Shown: positions 954 to 8,570, counted from the stretch's first letter. The stretch: 20,076 bases of DNA from Candidatus Bathyarchaeia archaeon (GCA_049512075.1 JBEKXL010000032.1:1-20076), one strand, 5' to 3'. Notes: generated from the sequence alone by a model not told the origin. Program-made: numbers and translations.

Positions 954-1082
954 ATGGGGAAAGTATATCGATGCCCAAATTGTAATAGAACAGAAATCAT
1001 ATGGGATGCAGGACTTAGAAAAGCTGTATGCCCAAAAGATAAAACACCGGTGAACAACTACAAAACGGAAAATAATGCTTGA
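954..1082 (+). CDS. Small Zn-ribbon-like protein (42 aa)
   Basis: RBS GAGGTGA at 941-947. MGKVYRCPNCNRTEIIWDAGLRKAVCPKDKTPVNNYKTENNA has CPxC and CPxD knuckles. Confidence 0.5.
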   Translation: MGKVYRCPNCNRTEIIWDAGLRKAVCPKDKTPVNNYKTENNA

Positions 1083-1272
1083 AAATATCTTTGACGTTCG
1101 CGCGCTAACCTTTTCCTCTAAATCTCTGTCTTGCTTGAAATAGATCTCACTTGGATATAATTTGTTGCATAATATAGAGCGCATTGTAGCCCATCTCTTG
1201 TTCAATATTGAAGCGTGCGTGCAAAGTTATGAACTAGGGCTTATAAGCTAAACTTGCGTCTTTTGTCGTTTT

Positions 1273-1413
1273 ATGGCTTTGCCGATAGCTAAGATCGACT
1301 TACATATTCACACTAGTTTCTCAGATGGAGCTTGCAGTGTCGATGAAGTCGTTAACTTAGTTTGTTGCCGATTTCCGTATACGTCTGTCTCGCATTTTCT
1401 TGAAGCAGACTAA
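1273..1413 (+). pseudogene. PHP-domain phosphoesterase N-terminal fragment
   Basis: MALPIAKIDLHIHTSFSDGACSVDEVVNL carries PHP motif I (DLHxHT.xSDG), then loses similarity and stops after 46 aa. Confidence 0.6.
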
Positions 1414-1468
1414 GAATTTTCCAATCCAACTCGTCTCGCGCGCGCCAGAGGGGAATACAAAACATGAT

Positions 1469-1612
1469 CTATGTGCCAATCTTCTTTAGTCTAGCAATCT
1501 TCTTCCTCTTTCTCTTCTCTTTCCTTTCCCTTTTCGTTAGAGGCTTAGGTCTCCCTTCAGCCTCCATAGCCCTCTTTTCTTTCTTTTCACCTTTCTTCTT
1601 CTTGCCCATCAT
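1469..1612 (-). CDS. Small Lys/Arg-rich protein (47 aa)
   Basis: GGGAGG-like RBS upstream. MMGKKKKGEKKEKRAMEAEGRPKPLTKRERKEKRKRKKIARLKKIGT. Confidence 0.5.
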   Translation of the reverse strand: MMGKKKKGEKKEKRAMEAEGRPKPLTKRERKEKRKRKKIARLKKIGT

Positions 1613-1666
1613 ATCGCCTCCCCATGATAATTGCGTGCGCTCTAAATCTTATTCCTCTCTTTTGTC

Positions 1667-1834
1667 TTATGGCGTCTCTTCTTCTGTTTCGAATTTTGTG
1701 GTCCGTGTGGCACTTACTAGGTGGGTTACGTAGCCAGCTATCATGTTTGTCAGTTTTGGGGAGGAGGTTTTGACGAGGCTTTTAGCAAGTTCTTTGTTTG
1801 TCCTCTTCACTCGCTCCGGCCGCACCTTACCCAA
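1667..1834 (-). pseudogene. rps17e: 30S ribosomal protein S17e homolog with in-frame internal deletion
   Basis: TTG start. MGKVRPERVKRT|NKELAKSLVKTSSPKLTNMIAGYVTHLV: the S17e N-motif (MGxVR..VKR) and C-motif (NK...N.IAGYVT) are joined without the usual central ~18 aa (A.EL.E.Y...FT.DFE). Confidence 0.8.
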
Positions 1835-2205
1835 GATTTAACGCCCCTTAACCCCCGCTCCTTTGCCTCCATCCACACATAGCGCGCTAGGGCGTTGCTT
1901 AAATCAGATTTTAATAGTTTTTATTCGGTTTCATGAGTAGTTGGCAGTTTTTGGTTGAACAATCTTCCCATCAGAAGCATCCAAACACACACCGAGAAAA
2001 AACCAACACATATTAAAATCCATTTTTGTCCGAATTTAGCAACAGCCTAGCGCGCGCAAACTTTACTCCTGCACGTTTCCTCAAAAGGAAAGAGAGGGGT
2101 TTCCAACGATTCAACCCTGTAGCAAACTGACAGGCACTAGTTGCATTTGTTGGATTGAACCTGGAAACCTATCCAAGACTGAAGGGTGCCTAAATAAAAG
2201 TGTTA

Positions 2206-2239
2206 GCGCGCGCCGGTACTGGTGCGTTAAGGGACATGA
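2206..2239 (+). repeat. Left TSD (2206-2214) + left TIR (2215-2239)
   Basis: GCGCGCGCC followed by GGTACTGGTGCGTTAAGGGACATGA. Confidence 0.93.
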
Positions 2240-2862
2240 ATGTCTTAAATATATCCAAAAAGATAACACACATATCAAGGGTGGATGTTGGAGAAACGTC
2301 AACCAGAAGTTTAAGGAAACGCTTGTCGCGGTATTACAGAAAGATGCGGAGAATAAAAATCACAAGACGTCATGGAGAAGCTTTAGCGAAGAATTATCTC
2401 GGTGTTCTTCTGTTCTTAGGAGAATTGTCCGTCGTTCTTTTGATGTTATTCTTACTCACATCGAATATCTTGGATTTGAAAACGGTTCTCTCGGTGTTGG
2501 TGCCTGACTTGTTCATAGCAATTTTTCTCTATTATCTTCTCGGTCAAGGACGTCGTGGTCAGGAAGAAGAAATATCTAACCTATTTGACGTTGCTGAGAA
2601 ATGTGCGCACTTAGTAGTTTACAAGTTCAGATTGCTTGAAGCGGATTTCTATTTTGTTGAAAACACAACTACCCAGGAATATTACAAAGCTCCAAAACAT
2701 ATCGCGCAAATGGCTGATCTTGGGGCTATTAGATTAGTCGAGTGCCAAAAAGGAGAGAAAGAAATGCGAGCAAAATTGCAGAACTCGCATGGAAATGAAG
2801 CAGAAGCCACAATCATTCAGCTTATGCCAAGGGAAAAGCCTATAAGTTACGATAGCTTTTAG
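2236..2862 (+). CDS. Passenger membrane protein (2 predicted TM helices + soluble C-terminal domain); start uncertain (2236, 2281 or 2344)
   Basis: Long ORF with hydrophobic stretches YLGVLLFLGELSVVLLMLFLLTS and VLSVLVPDLFIAIFLYYLL. The track start at 2200 lies outside the element, so the true start should be internal. Confidence 0.65.
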   Translation: MNVLNISKKITHISRVDVGETSTRSLRKRLSRYYRKMRRIKITRRHGEALAKNYLGVLLFLGELSVVLLMLFLLTSNILDLKTVLSVLVPDLFIAIFLYYLLGQGRRGQEEEISNLFDVAEKCAHLVVYKFRLLEADFYFVENTTTQEYYKAPKHIAQMADLGAIRLVECQKGEKEMRAKLQNSHGNEAEATIIQLMPREKPISYDSF

Positions 2863-2887
2863 GATATAGATAAGAGCGTGATAAGCT

Positions 2888-3772
2888 ATGAATTGCAAGT
2901 ATTGTGACTCTGAAAAAGTTGTGAAGAATGGCACGAAAGGCGATAGACAGAGATACCTCTGCAAAGATTGCGGTCACAAGTTTTTTGAAGGTTCAGAGTT
3001 TCCGAGAATGAGAACTGAGGCACGGATTATTTCTTCTAGCATTGACTTTTATTTTGAGGGTTTAAGCACTAGGAAGATTCAGACTCAGATTGAGAAACTG
3101 TACGGTGTTCATGTTGACCATTCGACAGTGCTAAGGTGGATTCTGAAATACTCTAACTTGGTCTCTCGATACGTCGAAACTTTAACGCCTCAGTTGTTGG
3201 GTATTTATCATGTTGACGAAACAGCGATCAAGTGTAAGGGTGTTCAAAAATGGTTCTGGGAAATTATTGACGATCAGACTAAATTCCTAGTTGCAGGTCA
3301 CCTTTCAGGTTTGAGAACCATTGAAGAGGCAGTAGCTCTTTTTGAGAAAAGCATGAAGGTAGCTAAAAAGAAGCCAACTTCAATCTACTGTGATGGGCTA
3401 AAACCATACGTGGACGCTTACAATCAAGTGTTCCGTACGATGAAAAAAGAAACAAGACCAGAATTAGTAAGAAGAGTTGGAATAAAAGCAATTCACAATC
3501 AGAACGTAGTTGAAAGACTTCATAGCACCCTTAAAGACAGAATAAAGCCGACAAGAGGTTTGAAAGGTGAAAAGACTGTTAGAACTTTGCTTGAAGGCTG
3601 GGTTGTCCACTACAACTATGTTCGGAAACATCAGACTTTGAAAATGACTCCTGCACAAGCCAGTGGATTAAACGTAAAGAATGACTGGTACACTCTTGTA
3701 AAGGATGCAACGAAGAATGAGGCGAAGAGAGAGGAAAAGCAAGTTCAGCAAATTGAGATGACTGTGAAATGA
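2888..3772 (+). CDS. DDE transposase, IS6 (IS240)-like catalytic domain with IS1-type N-terminal Zn ribbon and HTH
   Basis: CKYC...VKNG...QRYLCKDC Zn ribbon; GLSTRKI...VDHSTVLRWI HTH; catalytic motifs HVDET, CDG and NVVERLHSTLKDR. Frame intact. Confidence 0.95.
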   Translation: MNCKYCDSEKVVKNGTKGDRQRYLCKDCGHKFFEGSEFPRMRTEARIISSSIDFYFEGLSTRKIQTQIEKLYGVHVDHSTVLRWILKYSNLVSRYVETLTPQLLGIYHVDETAIKCKGVQKWFWEIIDDQTKFLVAGHLSGLRTIEEAVALFEKSMKVAKKKPTSIYCDGLKPYVDAYNQVFRTMKKETRPELVRRVGIKAIHNQNVVERLHSTLKDRIKPTRGLKGEKTVRTLLEGWVVHYNYVRKHQTLKMTPAQASGLNVKNDWYTLVKDATKNEAKREEKQVQQIEMTVK

Positions 3773-3924
3773 AAAAGATTCTAGTTAGCCTTCCAGAAGG
3801 CATATTCAAGACTGTCAGAGAATTGAAAGGACAGCTTGGGGACAGCGATTCTGAGGTTGTTCGCACTATGGTGATAAGCTTTCTAAGTGAAAAAGGATAT
3901 TTAAACAAGAAGGAAGAACCATGA
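3769..3924 (+). CDS. Ribbon-helix-helix (CopG-like) DNA-binding protein (51 aa)
   Basis: ATGA overlap with the transposase stop. MKKILVSLPEGIFKTVRELKGQLGDSDSEVVRTMVISFLSEKGYL fits the beta strand, helix, G.S.SEVVR helix pattern. Confidence 0.8.
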   Translation: MKKILVSLPEGIFKTVRELKGQLGDSDSEVVRTMVISFLSEKGYLNKKEEP

Positions 3925-4076
3925 GTGAAGCAAAGGTATGTCCCAAGTGTGGTGCCAATAAACTAATGAAAAGTGACACTTTTAGACTTGAAACGAAATG
4001 GCGAGTTAGTTGGATTGTTGTAACTTCCTATATCTGTGATAATTGTGGTTACGTTGAGCTGTACAAGGAGAAATAA
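3921..4076 (+). CDS. Small Zn-ribbon protein (51 aa)
   Basis: ATGA overlap with the RHH stop. MSEAKVCPKCG...SYICDNCGYVELYKEK (CPxCG...CxxCGYxExY). Confidence 0.75.
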   Translation: MSEAKVCPKCGANKLMKSDTFRLETKWRVSWIVVTSYICDNCGYVELYKEK

Positions 4077-4078
4077 GG

Positions 4079-4270
4079 ATGAGCAAAAGAAAGAAAGACC
4101 GCTTTAAAGAATTAGCTTTGGAACTTGACATGGTGGATCACATGATTGCTGCATTGGTGGATGTCTTAGAGAGAAAGGGTGTTTTGACTTCTGAGGAATG
4201 GGAAAAGGAAGTTAAGGCAAAAGTTGAAAATGCAGCTAAGACCACGAAAAGTTTTCGGGAGATTGAATGA
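4079..4270 (+). CDS. Small helical hypothetical protein (63 aa)
   Basis: Starts 2 nt after the previous stop. Amphipathic segment ALVDVLERKGVLTSEEWEKEVK. Confidence 0.72.
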   Translation: MSKRKKDRFKELALELDMVDHMIAALVDVLERKGVLTSEEWEKEVKAKVENAAKTTKSFREIE

Positions 4271-4482
4271 CTTTGGGAAGAAAGGATTTCCTTCGAAAAA
4301 TAGTAAAGAGCTTGCGGGGAACCACAAGAGAAACTGCGAAGACAAAACAAGAAATGAATCTTGATACTGTCGAAGCTCTCATTTTGAACCAGATTATTGA
4401 CAAGAAAGTTGAGGATGTTGACCAAGGGGGACTTGTTACAATAAAGAAAACTTCGGATGAGAAGTACTACTTAGAGGCATAG
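4267..4482 (+). CDS. Hypothetical protein (71 aa)
   Basis: ATGA overlap with the previous gene; last gene of the coupled run. Confidence 0.6.
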   Translation: MTLGRKDFLRKIVKSLRGTTRETAKTKQEMNLDTVEALILNQIIDKKVEDVDQGGLVTIKKTSDEKYYLEA

Positions 4483-4511
4483 TCTTGTCATCTGTCAGTT
4501 TTGGTAAGTTT

Positions 4512-4712
4512 TTACGACCACCATCGTTTTCTGTTCCAGCTCTCTTTCCTAACGACGAACTTGATGTTTGTGCCCTTGTAATTTTTGTTCATGCTGTTTG
4601 CTTTTTTCTGCGCTCGCTTCTTCAAACGAAAACGTTTTCCAGCAACAACTCTAACGGGCGTTCTGCCTTGCTTTCTGACAACAAGCCATCGAGATTTTTT
4701 TTGAGAACTCAA
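4512..4712 (-). CDS. Small basic hypothetical protein (66 aa)
   Basis: TTG-start ORF convergent on the cargo operon, very K/R-rich, fills the space up to the right TIR. Confidence 0.42.
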   Translation of the reverse strand: MSSQKKSRWLVVRKQGRTPVRVVAGKRFRLKKRAQKKANSMNKNYKGTNIKFVVRKESWNRKRWWS

Positions 4713-4757
4713 ACAAGACTCACAAAAGAAAAATTCTACGGTTTTTTACATCGGCTG

Positions 4758-4791
4758 TCATGTCCCTTAATGCACCAATACCGCGCGCGCC
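4758..4791 (-). repeat. Right TIR (4758-4782) + right TSD (4783-4791)
   Basis: TIR reverse complement is GGTATTGGTGCATTAAGGGACATGA; GCGCGCGCC follows on the + strand. Confidence 0.93.
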
Positions 4792-4871
4792 TCTTTCCCC
4801 CTACTTCGACCAGTTCCCTCCTTCAAAATGAGAATGAGCTGTCCCGTTTCCGTTGTTGTTAAATAAGTCAC
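4783..4871 (-). pseudogene. Thermosome (group II chaperonin) N-terminal fragment
   Basis: GGAGG RBS at 4881-4885, GTG start. MTYLTTTETGQLILILKEGTGRSRGKEA matches the thermosome N-terminus (GQP.LILKEGT.R.RG..A). Similarity ends at the GCGC target site and does not resume left of 2206. Confidence 0.75.
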
Positions 4872-5081
4872 GTAAAACTTCCTCCACTTCAATTAAGATC
4901 GAATCTGGTTTTGGATTAAATAAACGTGCCTATTCTACCGAAAGCGCTTTCTAAATTTCGACCCCGTTATTTCCTAGATTAGTCCCTTTAGTATTTTGCA
5001 AACAATTTCCAAAGCAGAAATGTATCAAAAGGTATCAACTCTTAAATTTTGCAATTTTAACTTCGTTCTGGAAGGCATAAA

Positions 5082-5361
5082 ATGTTTCAATATTTTGAGG
5101 CTGCAAGAGTTGGGAGTTGGCTTGGATGGATTTTCAATTTTGGTTTTGGGAGTGTTCTCTTTGGTGCGCTTCCTTTTGAGCGTACTGATGGTCTTCCCCC
5201 TTTCCATACTCATTCTCATGTGTTATGCGGATGTGTTAAAGAACCCGTCAAAAAATGTCATTAACACACAGAAAACTACGAGAAAGTATGGAATTATTGG
5301 GGTAACAATGCTATGGGCTTATGCACTACTCGCAAAAATAGCCAGCTTTTATAGGGCTTAG
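5082..5361 (+). pseudogene. Probable membrane-protein remnant (weak UbiA-prenyltransferase-like N- and C-terminal pieces in two frames)
   Basis: MFQYFEAARVGSWLGWIFNFGFGSVLFG in one frame and a hydrophobic C-terminal piece in another. Family assignment is speculative. Confidence 0.28.
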
Positions 5362-5617
5362 GACGCAAGTTTGAAAAGGCATATACGAGTTTTCTGCACT
5401 TAATTATAACCCATCACCTAAATGCGAAGTGAATGCTGTGTCTAAAACCGGAATCTAGGATAAGGGAGCCGCGCAAAAATATCCTTAGGCTGCTCTGTTG
5501 TTTAATCGCTTTATAAGGAAGTTTGCGTATTATAGGGCAGTAGCGTTTTGTTGTTGAAGGACGGAAGAACACAGCAGCATTGCACGTTACAATCAATGAT
5601 GAAAGGAGTGATGTAAA

Positions 5618-5905
5618 ATGGCGGAAAGATCGGGAATCGTTTTCATTGGAAGTAAAACACCAATGGACTATGTTCTAGCGATTATTACGAGCCTATCGAC
5701 GAGCAATGCTAAGGAAGTAGTCTTGAAAGCACGAGGACAAGCAATCACAACAGCTGTTGACGCAGCTGAAATAACCAGAGGCCGCTTCCTAAAAAACCTA
5801 AAAATAAGCAGAATCGCAATAGGGACAGAGGAGATGCCACCGAGAGAAGGCGAAAACAGATCACGGATGGTTTCAACAATTGAAATAACGCTTACAAAAG
5901 AGTAG
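5618..5905 (+). CDS. albA: DNA/RNA-binding protein Alba
   Basis: VFIGSKTPMDYVLA...LKARGQAITTAVDAAEI...IGTE...VSTIEITL; GGAGTGA RBS. Confidence 0.95.
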   Translation: MAERSGIVFIGSKTPMDYVLAIITSLSTSNAKEVVLKARGQAITTAVDAAEITRGRFLKNLKISRIAIGTEEMPPREGENRSRMVSTIEITLTKE

Positions 5906-6294
5906 GAAAACCTTGCGAAACACACGCGCTAAGTAAACATTAAGGCACCGCGGGTCTCTAAATGTTCCGAAAAATAGGTTTTTGACGATTTTTGTTTTCT
6001 CCCGATACCTTAGGCTTTAAGAACTCTAACAGAACCAAACGCCTTTTTACGAAGCGCAATATGACCCTATCGGGTTATGTCATTGCGAAGCACATTCAAC
6101 CTTCCAATTTTCTTTTGTTCTACGAATTGAAAGAAGTGTTTTAAAAACAGGTGAACAAGAACTTTTGAAAAGATTAGAAGAGATCGAAAAATGGGGGAAT
6201 GAGGGGCCTGTAGACTTGATGCCTTATGCCTTCTCCACCAACCTCGGCTTTACTTGCGGCTTTTTTTGCCTTTTTTGAGCCGTATTCGGTGTGC

Positions 6295-6465
6295 CTAAAT
6301 AATCTTCTTGCTTAGTACTTCTCGGAAGGGCTTCTTGCACTTTGGACAGTCGAAAAGGCCGATTTCTAACTGAGTTCTTTTTCCAGCTTTGGACGGGCGT
6401 CCAGCCATTGTCCACTTCTTCTTAGGCGATGAAACAACTGTTCCACATTTTTTACATTTTCCCAT
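6295..6465 (-). CDS. Cren7-like small chromatin protein with Zn-ribbon cysteines (56 aa)
   Basis: GGAGG RBS. MGKCKKCGTVVSSPKKKWTMAGRPSKAGKRTQLEIGLFDCPKCKKPFREVLSKKII shows the Cren7 pattern P.K.W....K....IGLF.....K.FR. Missed by the ORF track. Confidence 0.75.
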   Translation of the reverse strand: MGKCKKCGTVVSSPKKKWTMAGRPSKAGKRTQLEIGLFDCPKCKKPFREVLSKKII

Positions 6466-6607
6466 TTAATTTCCTCCAGTATATCTTGATAACCATCTGA
6501 TGGCGATAGATAAAACACTTTCCATCGTTTTCGGATACGAGCGCGTTCTACTTCACTACGATGAGGAATGTTCGACCGAAGGCGATAGGCGGTTAACGTA
6601 TGAAGTT

Positions 6608-7168
6608 TTATTCGTAGAATATGAGGTTTTGTTCCTCCAAGCTTCTGTGAAGCTTATGCACCGCGTCATAAACGTCCTGTTCCTTCTTCGCTCCGGTGCA
6701 AACAAGGTTCCCGCTTGCGAATATCAGTATGACCACCTTAGGCTCGTCCATCCTGTATATCAATCCTGGAAACTGCTCCGGCTCATACATGGTTTTTACA
6801 AGCGCGCCCACTGCCAGTTCCAACTCTATCCTTCCGCCTAAACTTGCGGAGGCAACAATGTTCACAACCTTCAAGTCCGGCTTGCTGATGATGATTATTC
6901 CACCCTTTTTCAACTCTTTAACAACTGTCATGACGGCCCTGCGGGATTCCTTCTCCGATTTTGCCCCCGTGCACACCATTTTGCCAGAATTGAAGATCAG
7001 CGTGGCTGTCTTCGGTCTCTTCAGCCTAAACACTAGTCCCGGGAACTGTTCCGGACGATACTCTACGCCTGGATAACTCTTCACGATAGCGTTTAAGTCA
7101 ACTTTCTGGTTTAAGGTTGCAGAAGCAACAACGTTTTGAATTTTTATTATGGCTTCAGTCTTCGGCAT
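6608..7168 (-). CDS. tbp: TATA-box-binding protein
   Basis: Two TBP repeats: NVVAS...YRPEQFPGL...LIFNSGKMVCTGAK and NIVAS...YEPEQFPGL...LIFASGNLVCTGAK. Confidence 0.98.
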   Translation of the reverse strand: MPKTEAIIKIQNVVASATLNQKVDLNAIVKSYPGVEYRPEQFPGLVFRLKRPKTATLIFNSGKMVCTGAKSEKESRRAVMTVVKELKKGGIIIISKPDLKVVNIVASASLGGRIELELAVGALVKTMYEPEQFPGLIYRMDEPKVVILIFASGNLVCTGAKKEQDVYDAVHKLHRSLEEQNLIFYE

Positions 7169-7284
7169 AAAACACCACTTCTTACAATGTGGCGGATGCT
7201 TAAATACCCTTTATAAAAGCCCTATGTTGCCAGCGTATGGAGGCTTCCCGCGCATCCCTTTTTTCTGTGAGCGCCGGTTGTAAT

Positions 7285-7434
7285 TTAATATTGCTCTCTC
7301 TTCCAAATATTATAAGGACATTGGGTCCGGCAGTAGCTGCCTCCCTTAAAAATACAGTTCCGGCATTCAGGCCGATCAAAAAACCTAGGCTTACCTACAA
7401 CCCTTCCACAGTACGGATATACCCGAAGCCTCAC
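7285..7434 (-). CDS. Possible small Cys-rich protein (49 aa)
   Basis: GTG start. MRLRVYPYCGRVVGKPRFFDRPECRNCIFKGGSYCRTQCPYNIWKREQY. Confidence 0.35.
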   Translation of the reverse strand: MRLRVYPYCGRVVGKPRFFDRPECRNCIFKGGSYCRTQCPYNIWKREQY

Positions 7435-7475
7435 TTTCAGTTTGCGGGTAGCGCTTTTCCAAGCTTGAGCGCGCT

Positions 7476-8570
7476 GCCTTGTCCCGAAATTATGTGTTGA
7501 AGTAGGTTGGTGATATTGCCTTGTCGGATCTTCCAGTGTTTTCGGCTGCTTCTCTGTTTAGAACCAGACACATGATGCTGTAGAGAGCGTAAGTAGCTAC
7601 GCTTTTGAGACCTCTAGCCTTGTTCATGATCAAGCCGTATTGAGTCTTCAAGAAGCTGTAGACAGCTTCTATCGTTGGTCTTTTGTGGTATTTCCTCTTC
7701 AGGTCTTCGGGTCCATAGATTCTGAATTTCTTATCCACTCTGAGCAGACCTTTAACGTTGCGCTTCTGGTTTGCAGGATACGGAATCACTGCTTCAACAG
7801 TTCTCCTGATTTTCTCGTCGTTGTATTGGCTGTCAGCTATTACGCGTTTGAGTTTGGCTCCTGCGTTGGAGAGGATTTGCCTTGTCTTCTCCAGCAGGGT
7901 CGGAGTGTGTCTCTTCTCGTTCTCGTTTGTTGGAGCCACAACGTTGGCCAGTGGGAGTCTGTTTTCAGAATCTATGGACAGGGGAAGCTTGTAGCCTAAG
8001 CCGAACGTTCTGCCTGCTCTTCCAACTCTTGCTTCTCCGTCAGAGAAGCCTGTTTGGCTGTCTTTGGGGTGGCGCGTGCTCCAAGCCTTTACGAAAGAAG
8101 CATCTAACACGGCGTCAACGTCTGAAGCGCTGCTTCTCTTCAAGAGCGCAACAACCTTATCCTCTATTATGCTTTCAAGCTTGTCTGCTCCTACCTTTCG
8201 GGCGAACCTGCTCAGAACAGACCGTGGATAACCCTTCTCGCCTTTCTTGAGCAGACAGATCTTTCTAAGCCTAACATCAACATCCAGCAACCTAGTCATC
8301 TCTCTTAGGCTGCGAACACCCTTCATGTGCATGACGATGAAAGCTCTGAAAAGCCCCACGGACTTCTAGGATGCCTACCCGGCCCAGCCGTGTGTAAGTA
8401 TCTGCATACTGCTTTCTCAGCAAAGCTTGAGTCGATGTTACAAAAGAGGGTTTCAAGGGTCTCGTGTTCATCTTGTCCAGCTAAAGGATTCACCTCCTAT
8501 GCTTGGGCGTAACACAAAATACGAGACTCCACTTCTCAAAATAAGGTTTCACTTAATTTAGGGACAAGCC
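7476..8570 (-). mobile_element. IS5/IS1182-like insertion sequence (1,095 bp)
   Basis: 21-bp imperfect TIRs: GCCTTGTCCCGAAATTATGTG (7476-7496) and GGCTTGTCCCTAAATTAAGTG (reverse complement of 8550-8570). 8-bp TSD AGCGCGCT at 7468-7475 and 8571-8578. Confidence 0.9.
7490..8471 (-). pseudogene. DDE_Tnp_1-clan transposase (DUF772-like N-terminus), frameshifted
   Basis: ATG 8471 frame MNTRPLKP...GPGRHPRSP shifts at ~8358 into GLFRAFIVM..SLRE..SVLSRF..DASF..GYKLP..ADSQY..RPTIE. GYKLP replaces the usual GYKLH. The stop codon lies inside the TIR. Confidence 0.85.

Follow-up and report, generated by a model that had tools for sequence, protein, structure and literature searches.

Members of the IS6 family of insertion sequences (IS) are mostly 0.7-0.9 kb long, and a few are longer, up to 1.76 kb, these having zinc (Zn)-finger transposases from Clostridia (PMC7986276, PMC6807381). 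Their target duplication is 8 bp (Varani 2021 PMC7986276), their inverted repeats are defined by a GG tip and an internal cTGTt (Varani 2021 PMC7986276; Harmer & Hall 2019 PMC6807381), and GGnnnTG ends are common to IS6 and IS1 (Harmer & Hall 2019 PMC6807381). In the available text of the family review, ISDsp3, with one hypothetical gene, is the sole passenger-carrying member (Varani 2021 PMC7986276). The present work concerns a stretch of 20,076 nt from a Candidatus Bathyarchaeia archaeon (GCA_049512075.1, JBEKXL010000032.1:1-20076), hereafter the window, all coordinates being counted from its first letter. It contains a seven-gene transposon of 2568 bp (2215..4782), whose transposase appears to sit between IS6 and IS1 and is accompanied, in every archaeal relative found, by two tiny genes, one for a putative DNA-binding protein of ~50 aa and one for a 63-aa protein termed p63.

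For IS1 the target duplication is 9 bp, and IS1 subgroups with a single open reading frame (ORF) exist; the archaeal IS1 subgroup ISMhu11 of ISfinder, named after a Methanospirillum element, presumably extends to lengths of ~4.6 kb, and if the present elements are filed in it their carriage of cargo is already on record, although no study of the partner genes is known. Small ribbon-helix-helix (RHH) proteins are co-transcribed with the key enzyme of a replicon and repress the shared promoter in CopG-RepB of pMV158 and ORF56-ORF904 of pRN1, which differ from the window element in that they serve plasmid replication, place the repressor gene first and have no second small partner. The closest functional precedent is Arc, an RHH protein encoded within IS605-family elements, which binds and represses the promoter of its element (bioRxiv 10.64898/2026.09.24.754181). 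Arc resembles the present case in being an RHH-type protein of ~50 aa encoded within an IS, whereas the IS605 elements use HUH TnpA/TnpB in bacterial hosts, with no p63-like partner described in the available text of that preprint, and the window element has a DDE transposase; moreover, repression was shown for Arc, while here it is a prediction from sequence. No account of an archaeal IS6-/IS1-like group carrying an RHH or AbrB gene together with a p63-like gene was found in the searchable literature, which leaves ISfinder and TnCentral outside, and the original prediction, which had called the element undercharacterised, agrees with this. In contrast with IS6, described as transposase-only, the whole archaeal clade carries cargo of up to ~4 kb and is never without the two partner genes.

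A gene pair constant among archaeal relatives

One scan of species-representative genomes yielded 28 related loci. Eighteen belong to metagenome-assembled genomes (MAGs) of Bathyarchaeia/Bathyarchaeota (L005-L021, L029), with transposases 50-89% identical to that of the window; eight come from Methanobacterium or Methanobacteriaceae, Methanolobus and Methanoperedens (45-52%), and two from Chloroflexi (35%), 26 of the 28 being archaeal. A single complete copy of the element is present in the window genome itself (G000; 99.8% complete, 2.73 Mb in 86 contigs).

When the seven window proteins were compared with all related loci by tblastn, the RHH-like gene and p63 were found directly downstream of the transposase in 18/18 Bathyarchaeia loci. 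In the methanogen-type loci p63 is likewise present (8/8; six by tblastn, L024 added by ORF clustering and L027 by direct ORF reading), and there it is preceded, again in 8/8, by a 50-57-aa AbrB/MazE-like ORF, which mostly abuts p63 or overlaps it by 1-4 nt, L028 and L030 reading differently. The label of this ORF derives from PF04014 in the two cases scanned with Pfam (L024, 26.8 bits against a cutoff of 24.7; L025, 22.1 bits) and from evident similarity to these two in the other six. A small DNA-binding gene plus p63 is kept in 26/26 archaeal loci, and both genes are absent from 2/2 Chloroflexi relatives. The mobile core consists of the transposase, a ~50-aa DNA-binding protein and p63. This is the outcome anticipated by the original prediction, in which the RHH and 63-aa genes were to be constant while the outer ORFs vary; the contrary case that it had named, small ORFs that do not co-occur with transposase homologues, did not arise for these two genes.

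The adjacency of the pair is retained under rearrangement. It lies behind the transposase in Methanolobus and Methanoperedens and upstream of it on the opposite strand, in divergent orientation, in six Methanobacterium-type loci, still adjacent, and L071 represents an RHH-class case of the divergent layout in which the pair is still adjacent and coupled. The identity of the pair to the window proteins tracks that of the transposase (Spearman 0.80 for p63, n=24; 0.74 for the RHH-like protein, n=18), these loci being kin, so that p-values overstate the association. Purifying selection acts on all three core genes, with ratios of nonsynonymous to synonymous substitution (dN/dS) of 0.05-0.14, namely 0.05-0.08 for the transposase, 0.06-0.14 for the RHH-like gene and 0.058 for p63, where several comparisons were saturated at synonymous sites.

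In the window, a print-out of the junctions confirmed the translational coupling that had been claimed, with three ATGA overlaps (transposase/RHH-like gene at 3769, RHH-like gene/Zn-ribbon gene at 3921, p63/p71 at 4267) and one 2-nt gap between the Zn-ribbon gene and p63 (Table 1). Of the four small genes, all of them coupled, only the RHH-like gene and p63 belong to the core; the Zn-ribbon and p71 genes are inserts within the coupled operon that leave the coupling unbroken, a correction to the original prediction.

Table 1. Coordinates of the element and its parts in the window
Feature	Position	Strand	Basis
Left target duplication copy GCGCGCGCC	2206..2214	.	Identical to 4783..4791
Left inverted repeat (IRL) GGTACTGGTGCGTTAAGGGACATGA, GGnnnTG tip	2215..2239	+	Direct reading and repeat finder
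Left cargo gene for a basic protein of 208 aa, two membrane helices predicted	2236..2862	+	ORF list
TATA-box-like sequence CCTATAAGTT (relatives CCTTATATA)	2839..2848	+	17-element alignment; predicted
Candidate operator, near-palindromic block CTTTTAGGATATAGATAAG	2856..2874	+	Conserved across RHH-class elements
Shine-Dalgarno (SD)-like GTGAT	2878..2882	+	Follows candidate operator block
Transposase, 294 aa; N-terminal CxxC...CxxC Zn-ribbon, helix-turn-helix region, DDE domain	2888..3772	+	NCBIfam, Pfam, alignment
Core gene 1, 51-aa RHH-like (probable) DNA-binding protein, ATGA-coupled to transposase	3769..3924	+	18/18 Bathyarchaeia loci
Inserted gene, 51-aa four-Cys Zn-ribbon between RHH-like gene and p63	3921..4076	+	ORF list
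Core gene 2 (p63), 63-aa predicted helical hairpin, no named family	4079..4270	+	26/26 archaeal loci
Inserted gene p71, 71 aa, ATGA-coupled to p63	4267..4482	+	ORF list
Convergent very basic protein, 66 aa, pI 12.0	4512..4712	-	ORF list, right end
Right inverted repeat (IRR)	4758..4782	-	Direct reading and repeat finder
Right target duplication copy GCGCGCGCC	4783..4791	.	Direct reading

The AlphaFold2 model of p63, built from a 22-row alignment, comprises two helices (residues 3-32 and 38-55; mean predicted local distance difference test score, pLDDT, 85.6) that are joined by an invariant K-G turn, and the protein is neutral with an isoelectric point (pI) of 6.6. A profile search placed 2108 clusters in its family at E<=1e-3 among 7998 scored candidates; a Pfam domain occurred in none of the 120 clusters listed, and the JGI name, where one was given, was most often 'predicted DNA-binding transcriptional regulator'. 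Its link to the transposase provides a first functional context for this unnamed family of more than 2,100 clusters. Two candidate relatives were discarded, namely the beta subunit of nitrile hydratase, the best PDB profile match (E 0.015 over 29 residues), which shares a helix-turn motif only, and Pfam FeoC (E 5.8e-4, 20.4 bits, cutoff 21), whose winged helix disagrees with the two-helix hairpin of the model.

A p63 match at E<=1e-5 was obtained in 8/201 sampled genomes of the class, a patchy spread typical of a mobile gene. When the view was centred on p63 itself, nine p63 loci outside G000 were examined over ~3.1 kb each: the transposase and the RHH-like gene adjoin p63 in five, of which L066 and L073 apparently coincide with L014 and L007; two of the nine are pseudogenes with in-frame stops. 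G000 holds three further p63 copies, all of them remnants of a related sub-lineage: C1 retains a transposase fragment (residues 184-294), a partial RHH-like gene and p63, C20 a shorter fragment (residues 214-294) with the RHH-like gene and a p63 bearing one TAG, and C19 the RHH-like gene and p63 with no transposase match.

Transposase, ends and family placement

The transposase passes the NCBIfam IS6 model NF033587 (131 bits, cutoff 125) and fails the IS1 model NF033558 (68.5 bits, cutoff 100), while its N-terminal Zn-ribbon passes NF050000, IS1_IS1595_Zn (44.2 bits, cutoff 28). In Pfam, DDE_Tnp_IS240 was found at 72.4 bits (cutoff 27) and Zn_ribbon_InsA remained sub-threshold (18.8 bits, cutoff 26.1). 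Among 12 aligned relatives, C3, C6, C25, C28, D110, D169 and E209 are invariant and K216 nearly so; since the 294-aa frame is open and these Cys and catalytic residues are kept, the transposase looks intact, as had been proposed. It is encoded in a single open frame with no InsA/InsB frameshift. A tblastn comparison with 72,556 plasmids gave matches in at least 5,000 records, and of the 25 best places listed, those that carry an annotation are nearly all transposases of IS6 or IS26 at ~26-30% identity, the best by E-value (3e-21) being an IS6 transposase on a Clostridium botulinum plasmid. Clostridia, the class of that host, is also where the Zn-finger IS6 transposases are placed in the available text of two reviews (Varani 2021 PMC7986276; Harmer & Hall 2019 PMC6807381).

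All coordinates of the predicted 25-bp terminal repeats and the perfect 9-bp target duplication hold on direct reading, 23/25 positions of IRL and IRR pair, and the repeat finder returned 26-nt arms at 92%, one flanking base pairing as well. The duplication, GCGCGCGCC, is perfect on both sides. Inverted repeats homologous to those of the window were found at both ends of ten related loci, measuring 2224, 2459, 2864, 3094, 3125, 4049, 4376, 4751, 5432 and 6861 bp, and 8/10 show a perfect 9-bp duplication (L007 has 8 bp and L029 none); the ends and duplication in the window are therefore not attributable to chance, and the 9-bp duplication is a trait of the whole clade. The same or a near-identical IRL-like repeat occurs in L005, L006, L007, L010 and L018. 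The tip of the window element, GGTACTG, fits GGnnnTG, and the cTGTt motif is present in the repeats of L013, L015, L024, L025 and L029, at which place the window reads CTGGT instead.

In comparison with the IS6/IS26 Zn-finger clade (ISCpe7, ISCbo1; clade h/VII), the element shares the IS6-type catalytic domain with DDE and the following K, the N-terminal Zn finger, the GG tips and, in its relatives, cTGTt. It departs from that clade in the 9-bp rather than 8-bp duplication, in its 25-bp inverted repeats and the archaeal hosts of its clade, in a multi-gene length of 2.2-6.9 kb against 0.7-0.9 kb with a transposase only, and in the DNA-binding gene and p63 that always accompany the archaeal loci. 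With IS1 it has in common the IS1/IS1595-type Zn-ribbon, the GGnnnTG ends and the 9-bp duplication, in contrast with the failed IS1 model and the unshifted frame. The mixed character noted in the original prediction, IS6-like in the catalytic domain and IS1-like in ends and duplication, is borne out, the Zn-ribbon being IS1-like too, and the clade is best described as archaeal Zn-ribbon DDE transposons that seem to sit between the two families. As a transposon, the element represents a variant of an established kind, and the constant pair of DNA-binding gene and p63 is the part worth experiment.

One relative has an unusual structure. In L018 (4.4 kb) an inward-facing inverted-repeat-like sequence stands right after p63 (5235-5259), and a reversed p63 fragment (6933-7007) adjoins the right end, which suggests an element nested in, or composed of, two copies.

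The candidate control circuit and its rivals

A single repeat pair and a single duplication enclose the transposase plus genes not needed for transposition, as in a transporter IS (tIS), and the element is real, complete and probably active. We consider it rather probable that it represents a single-copy, apparently active tIS in which the DNA-binding gene and p63 control the transposase operon; DNA binding, repression and any interaction of p63 are the putative parts of this proposal. A single archaeal promoter, ~45 nt before the start codon of the transposase, would drive transcription of the transposase, the RHH-like gene and p63, and their translation would be coupled. The RHH-like protein would bind the near-palindromic block at 2856-2874 and repress the whole operon, by which the output of transposase would be self-limited, and p63, made in step with the repressor, would modulate either the repression circuit or the transposase itself. 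The two-membrane-helix (2-TM), Zn-ribbon, p71 and basic genes are passengers in exchangeable slots.

The assignment of the 51-aa protein as RHH is only probable. Its conserved N-terminal KK(I/V)LVSLP and the invariant G24 and S28 of the alignment fit the strand and the G-x-S turn of the RHH fold, and its ten best named neighbours in the Atlas all belong to the RHH clan (scores 0.91-0.94). The control region was delineated from an alignment of 95 nt up to and into the transposase start in 17 RHH-class elements. It contains a sequence resembling the B recognition element (BRE) and TATA box, AAACCTTATATA, ~45-50 nt upstream of the ATG, followed by a block with the consensus CTTATAGGATATAnATAAG and then GTGATAAG, in which the SD-like GTGAT lies. 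The candidate operator CTTTTAGGATATAGATAAG has a single match in the 20-kb window, and 0/100 shuffles gave any. Where the DNA-binding protein is of the AbrB class, the repeats at the equivalent place differ, reading GTATACC(A/T)AAAAGTATA in L022 and L025 and TAGGTCTA...TAGACCTA in the Methanobacterium loci. The simplest reading of this arrangement is a site for a repressor that overlaps the point at which transcription of the transposase operon begins.

Several observations weigh against the proposed control circuit. Pfam RHH_1 scores 13.4 bits on the 51-aa protein, below the cutoff of 20.5, and reaches E<=0.1 in 4/21 family members only (best 0.013); a PDB profile search with this protein gave spurious leucine-rich repeats plus weak Z-alpha (E 0.02) and MazE6 (E 0.5) matches. 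The conserved block may simply comprise the promoter, the transcription start, the leader and the ribosome-binding site. Block divergence is greatest in the four elements that have diverged furthest in general, so that the apparent co-variation of operator and repressor is confounded by descent. For p63, no homologue or fold relative was obtained by PDB profile, Foldseek (E<=1e-3) or Atlas searches. Two of the nine p63 loci outside G000 (L068, L074) have an intact solo p63, with no DNA-binding gene or transposase within the ~3.1 kb, and since such genes exist, p63 need not act only with its pair partners. The Atlas neighbours of p63 are 'hypothetical protein' clusters only, and the leucine-rich repeat matches of the RHH-like profile were rejected as artefacts of 'LxSLPxGxF'.

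Among the alternatives, the DNA-binding gene and p63 might be a toxin-antitoxin-like addiction pair by which the genome is made to keep the element, which we regard as improbable. The two-gene layout with the DNA-binding gene first and a 4-nt overlap has this appearance, as does the exchange of the DNA-binding class (RHH against AbrB/MazE-like, PF04014) beside a constant second gene, which is the habit of type II systems; the pair also persists in the three decayed G000 copies whose transposase is truncated or gone, and other cargo of the clade is toxin-antitoxin- or defence-like (Panacea, UPF0175+DUF3368, NYN, methylases). However, the DNA-binding proteins, at 50-57 aa, extend only ~6 residues beyond the fold and have no neutralising tail, p63 is a neutral two-helix hairpin unlike known toxin folds and with no PDB match at E<=1e-3, intact solo p63 genes occur, and in Bathyarchaeia elements the pair stands behind the transposase without a promoter of its own.

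To about the same degree unlikely is a role of RHH/AbrB and p63 as transposition cofactors in end recognition, transpososome assembly, target choice or handling of the cointegrate that IS6-type copy-in transposition is expected to give. The conserved block is unlike the inverted repeats, with no copy near the ends, and an exchange of RHH for AbrB would require repeat contacts to be learned anew, yet the repeats of both classes are alike. Neither protein has a catalytic motif, and the duplications of the ten bracketed elements are without consensus. Such a role would nevertheless account for the strict co-inheritance with this transposase clade; in the available text of its review the IS6 family has no known resolvase (Varani 2021 PMC7986276). 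The insertion of L005 and L018 into the same ~30-bp target in opposite orientations hints at target preference.

That the pair is host-directed cargo fixed in the lineage, for instance to regulate host genes or to counter defence, is very unlikely, for although p63 is far more widespread than the basic ORF (2108 against 126 clusters) and exists in solo copies, the pair is present in 26/26 archaeal loci with transposases 45-89% identical to that of the window while every other gene varies, and its patchy spread (8/201 class genomes) follows the element.

Self-repression of the transposase operon, by analogy to Arc in IS605, is accordingly ranked by us as the likeliest role of the pair. If RHH/AbrB does repress the transposase promoter, the Arc/IS605 principle would extend to DDE transposons and to archaea, in a compact and testable regulatory circuit. 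A wider reading is offered tentatively, as a possibility with less than even chances. In it, the DNA-binding protein and p63 would together be an undescribed, obligatory two-protein control module that defines an archaeal IS1/IS6-intermediate family. p63, kept while its partner is exchanged between RHH and AbrB, would be a new kind of factor associated with a transposase, setting the rate of transposition either as an anti-repressor or by inhibiting the transposase directly. The elements would serve peat and methanogen archaea as a widespread vehicle for cargo of the defence and toxin-antitoxin kind.

Cargo, insertion site and neighbouring DNA

Cargo occupies two slots, left of the promoter and right of p63, and the variability predicted for each end was observed, since both sides of the core differ among relatives. 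A 341-385-aa membrane protein is carried by L005, L006, L007 and L018, a NYN-domain protein by L013, a UPF0175 + DUF3368 pair by L029, and an N-6 methylase, a Panacea-domain protein and further ORFs by L024. The largest relative, L015 (6.9 kb), carries an 846-aa N6/N4 DNA methylase (1376-3916) together with a 211-aa ORF and a 746-aa subtilase-family protease (5222-5857 and 5860-8100), which may be a defence-type set; several other cargo ORFs of the relatives gave no match. These elements show how methylases, proteases and toxin-antitoxin-like genes travel among uncultured peat archaea.

In the window, the upstream 2-TM gene was recovered as described, with hydrophobic stretches at about residues 53-77 and 78-105. 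Its product has no Pfam or NCBIfam match, and among the 28 loci a homologue is found only in L019, at the same position (45% over 163 aa). The ATG of this gene (2236) lies inside IRL, and the frame is open upstream to a GTG at 2200, outside the element; read-through from the flank could make a fusion product. The inserted Zn-ribbon protein scores 22.3 bits with Pfam Zn_ribbon_13 (cutoff 23). Its gene is absent from the window position in 28/28 related loci, with one weak match in L017 upstream of the transposase, and its family is small (18 representatives at E<=1e-3 among 1.84 billion proteins, the matches listed being mostly 48-62 aa). p71 is absent from 28/28 related loci by tblastn and has one homologue besides itself (73% identity) in a search of 5.8 billion proteins.

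With regard to age, the element is absent from the four same-genus genomes searched, which have only pieces resembling p63 or the basic ORF. The left flank of the window is matched at 97% identity by G004 and at 92% by G001, up to window position 2213 and 2211, respectively, beyond which other sequence follows; in contigs from peat metagenomes the sequence continues from 2213 as in G004. In neither genome does the right flank adjoin directly, G001 joining 2211 to 5435. The clean empty site that was sought in related genomes was not obtained, no genome or metagenome contig joining 2214 directly to 4792. Because the same-genus genomes have no copy, left-flank variants are free of the IS and the duplication is perfect, a strain-specific and fairly recent insertion is supported by these sequence comparisons. 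The original prediction had argued for recent arrival from an intact element amid decayed neighbours; the arrival stands on the absence from the four genomes and the IS-free left flanks, but not on its neighbours. Decayed copies of this element type do exist, but elsewhere in the genome, and its immediate surroundings include an unrelated second IS as well as intact genes for Hsp20, Alba and TBP. This second IS (7490-8359, minus strand), 2.7 kb from the element, encodes a 289-aa transposase with DDE_Tnp_1 and DUF772 (IS4/IS5-like) and adjoins TBP (6608-7168, minus strand) and Alba (5618-5905).

The flanking DNA has features of its own. In three same-genus genomes the left flank closes with GTGTTAGCGCGC, and what follows differs in each (window 2030-2062 and 2200-2214; L047 2040-2060; L048 1800-1820). 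A word of 22-23 nt around CCTAGCGCGCG (window 2034-2056) has ~11 further occurrences in G001 and is likewise found in G004, G007 and G026; the region is mosaic, repeated and non-coding, its junctions seemingly marked by GCGCGC motifs. In run X5, contigs at least 90% like the flanks (1637-2184, 4925-5600) have a summed depth of ~1,000-5,500 and the interior of the element a depth of 0.1-7 nearly throughout (487 in the bin 4103-4239), which is consistent with abundant IS-free relatives or repeats, contig depth not being a share of cells. The duplications of ten elements gave no consensus. The target shared by L005 and L018, which are from different MAGs, reads ...AAAGAATA TGTCGAAAG CGTAGAACA... 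over ~30 bp with the same 9-bp duplication (L005 2698-2714 / 5809-5826; L018 7105-7121 / 2711-2728), the flanks diverging beyond, and suggests a preferred target or a repeated target sequence.

The convergent basic ORF downstream of the operon was likewise present as claimed, with 66 aa on the minus strand. The right end is indeed a variable slot, although this ORF is not an arbitrary occupant, as it recurs within other IS6-like elements of G000. Among the 28 loci, tblastn found it in L014 only, while G000 has four copies, all in or beside IS6-like elements. Several IS6-like lineages have it as a recurring passenger at their right end. Its dN/dS is 0.17-0.31, and its family of 126 clusters is entirely 'hypothetical'. 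AlphaFold2 predicted a beta-beta-alpha-beta arrangement (pLDDT 78), with no PDB sequence match and no significant Foldseek match (best ClpS-like, E 2.2, probability 0.6).

The C12 copy, which has one in-frame TGA, is convergent to a 367-aa IS6-like transposase with SWIM and Zn-ribbon domains, in an element (L076 1748-4918) with 56-nt inverted repeats starting GGTTCTGG, and the C2 copy lies ~1.3 kb downstream of a similar transposase. The C4 copy is within an element bounded by perfect 52-nt inverted repeats (L077 1223-3883); this element of 2.66 kb encodes a C-terminal transposase fragment only, a 256-aa membrane-like ORF and the basic protein, and may be a non-autonomous derivative recently mobilised in trans. 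The IS6-like transposases of C12 (L002 1736-2839), C2 and C14 in G000 are 367-390 aa long and 33-39% identical to that of the window, with an extra N-terminal SWIM-like Cys-rich domain before the Zn-ribbon; the basic ORF accompanies two of these transposases.

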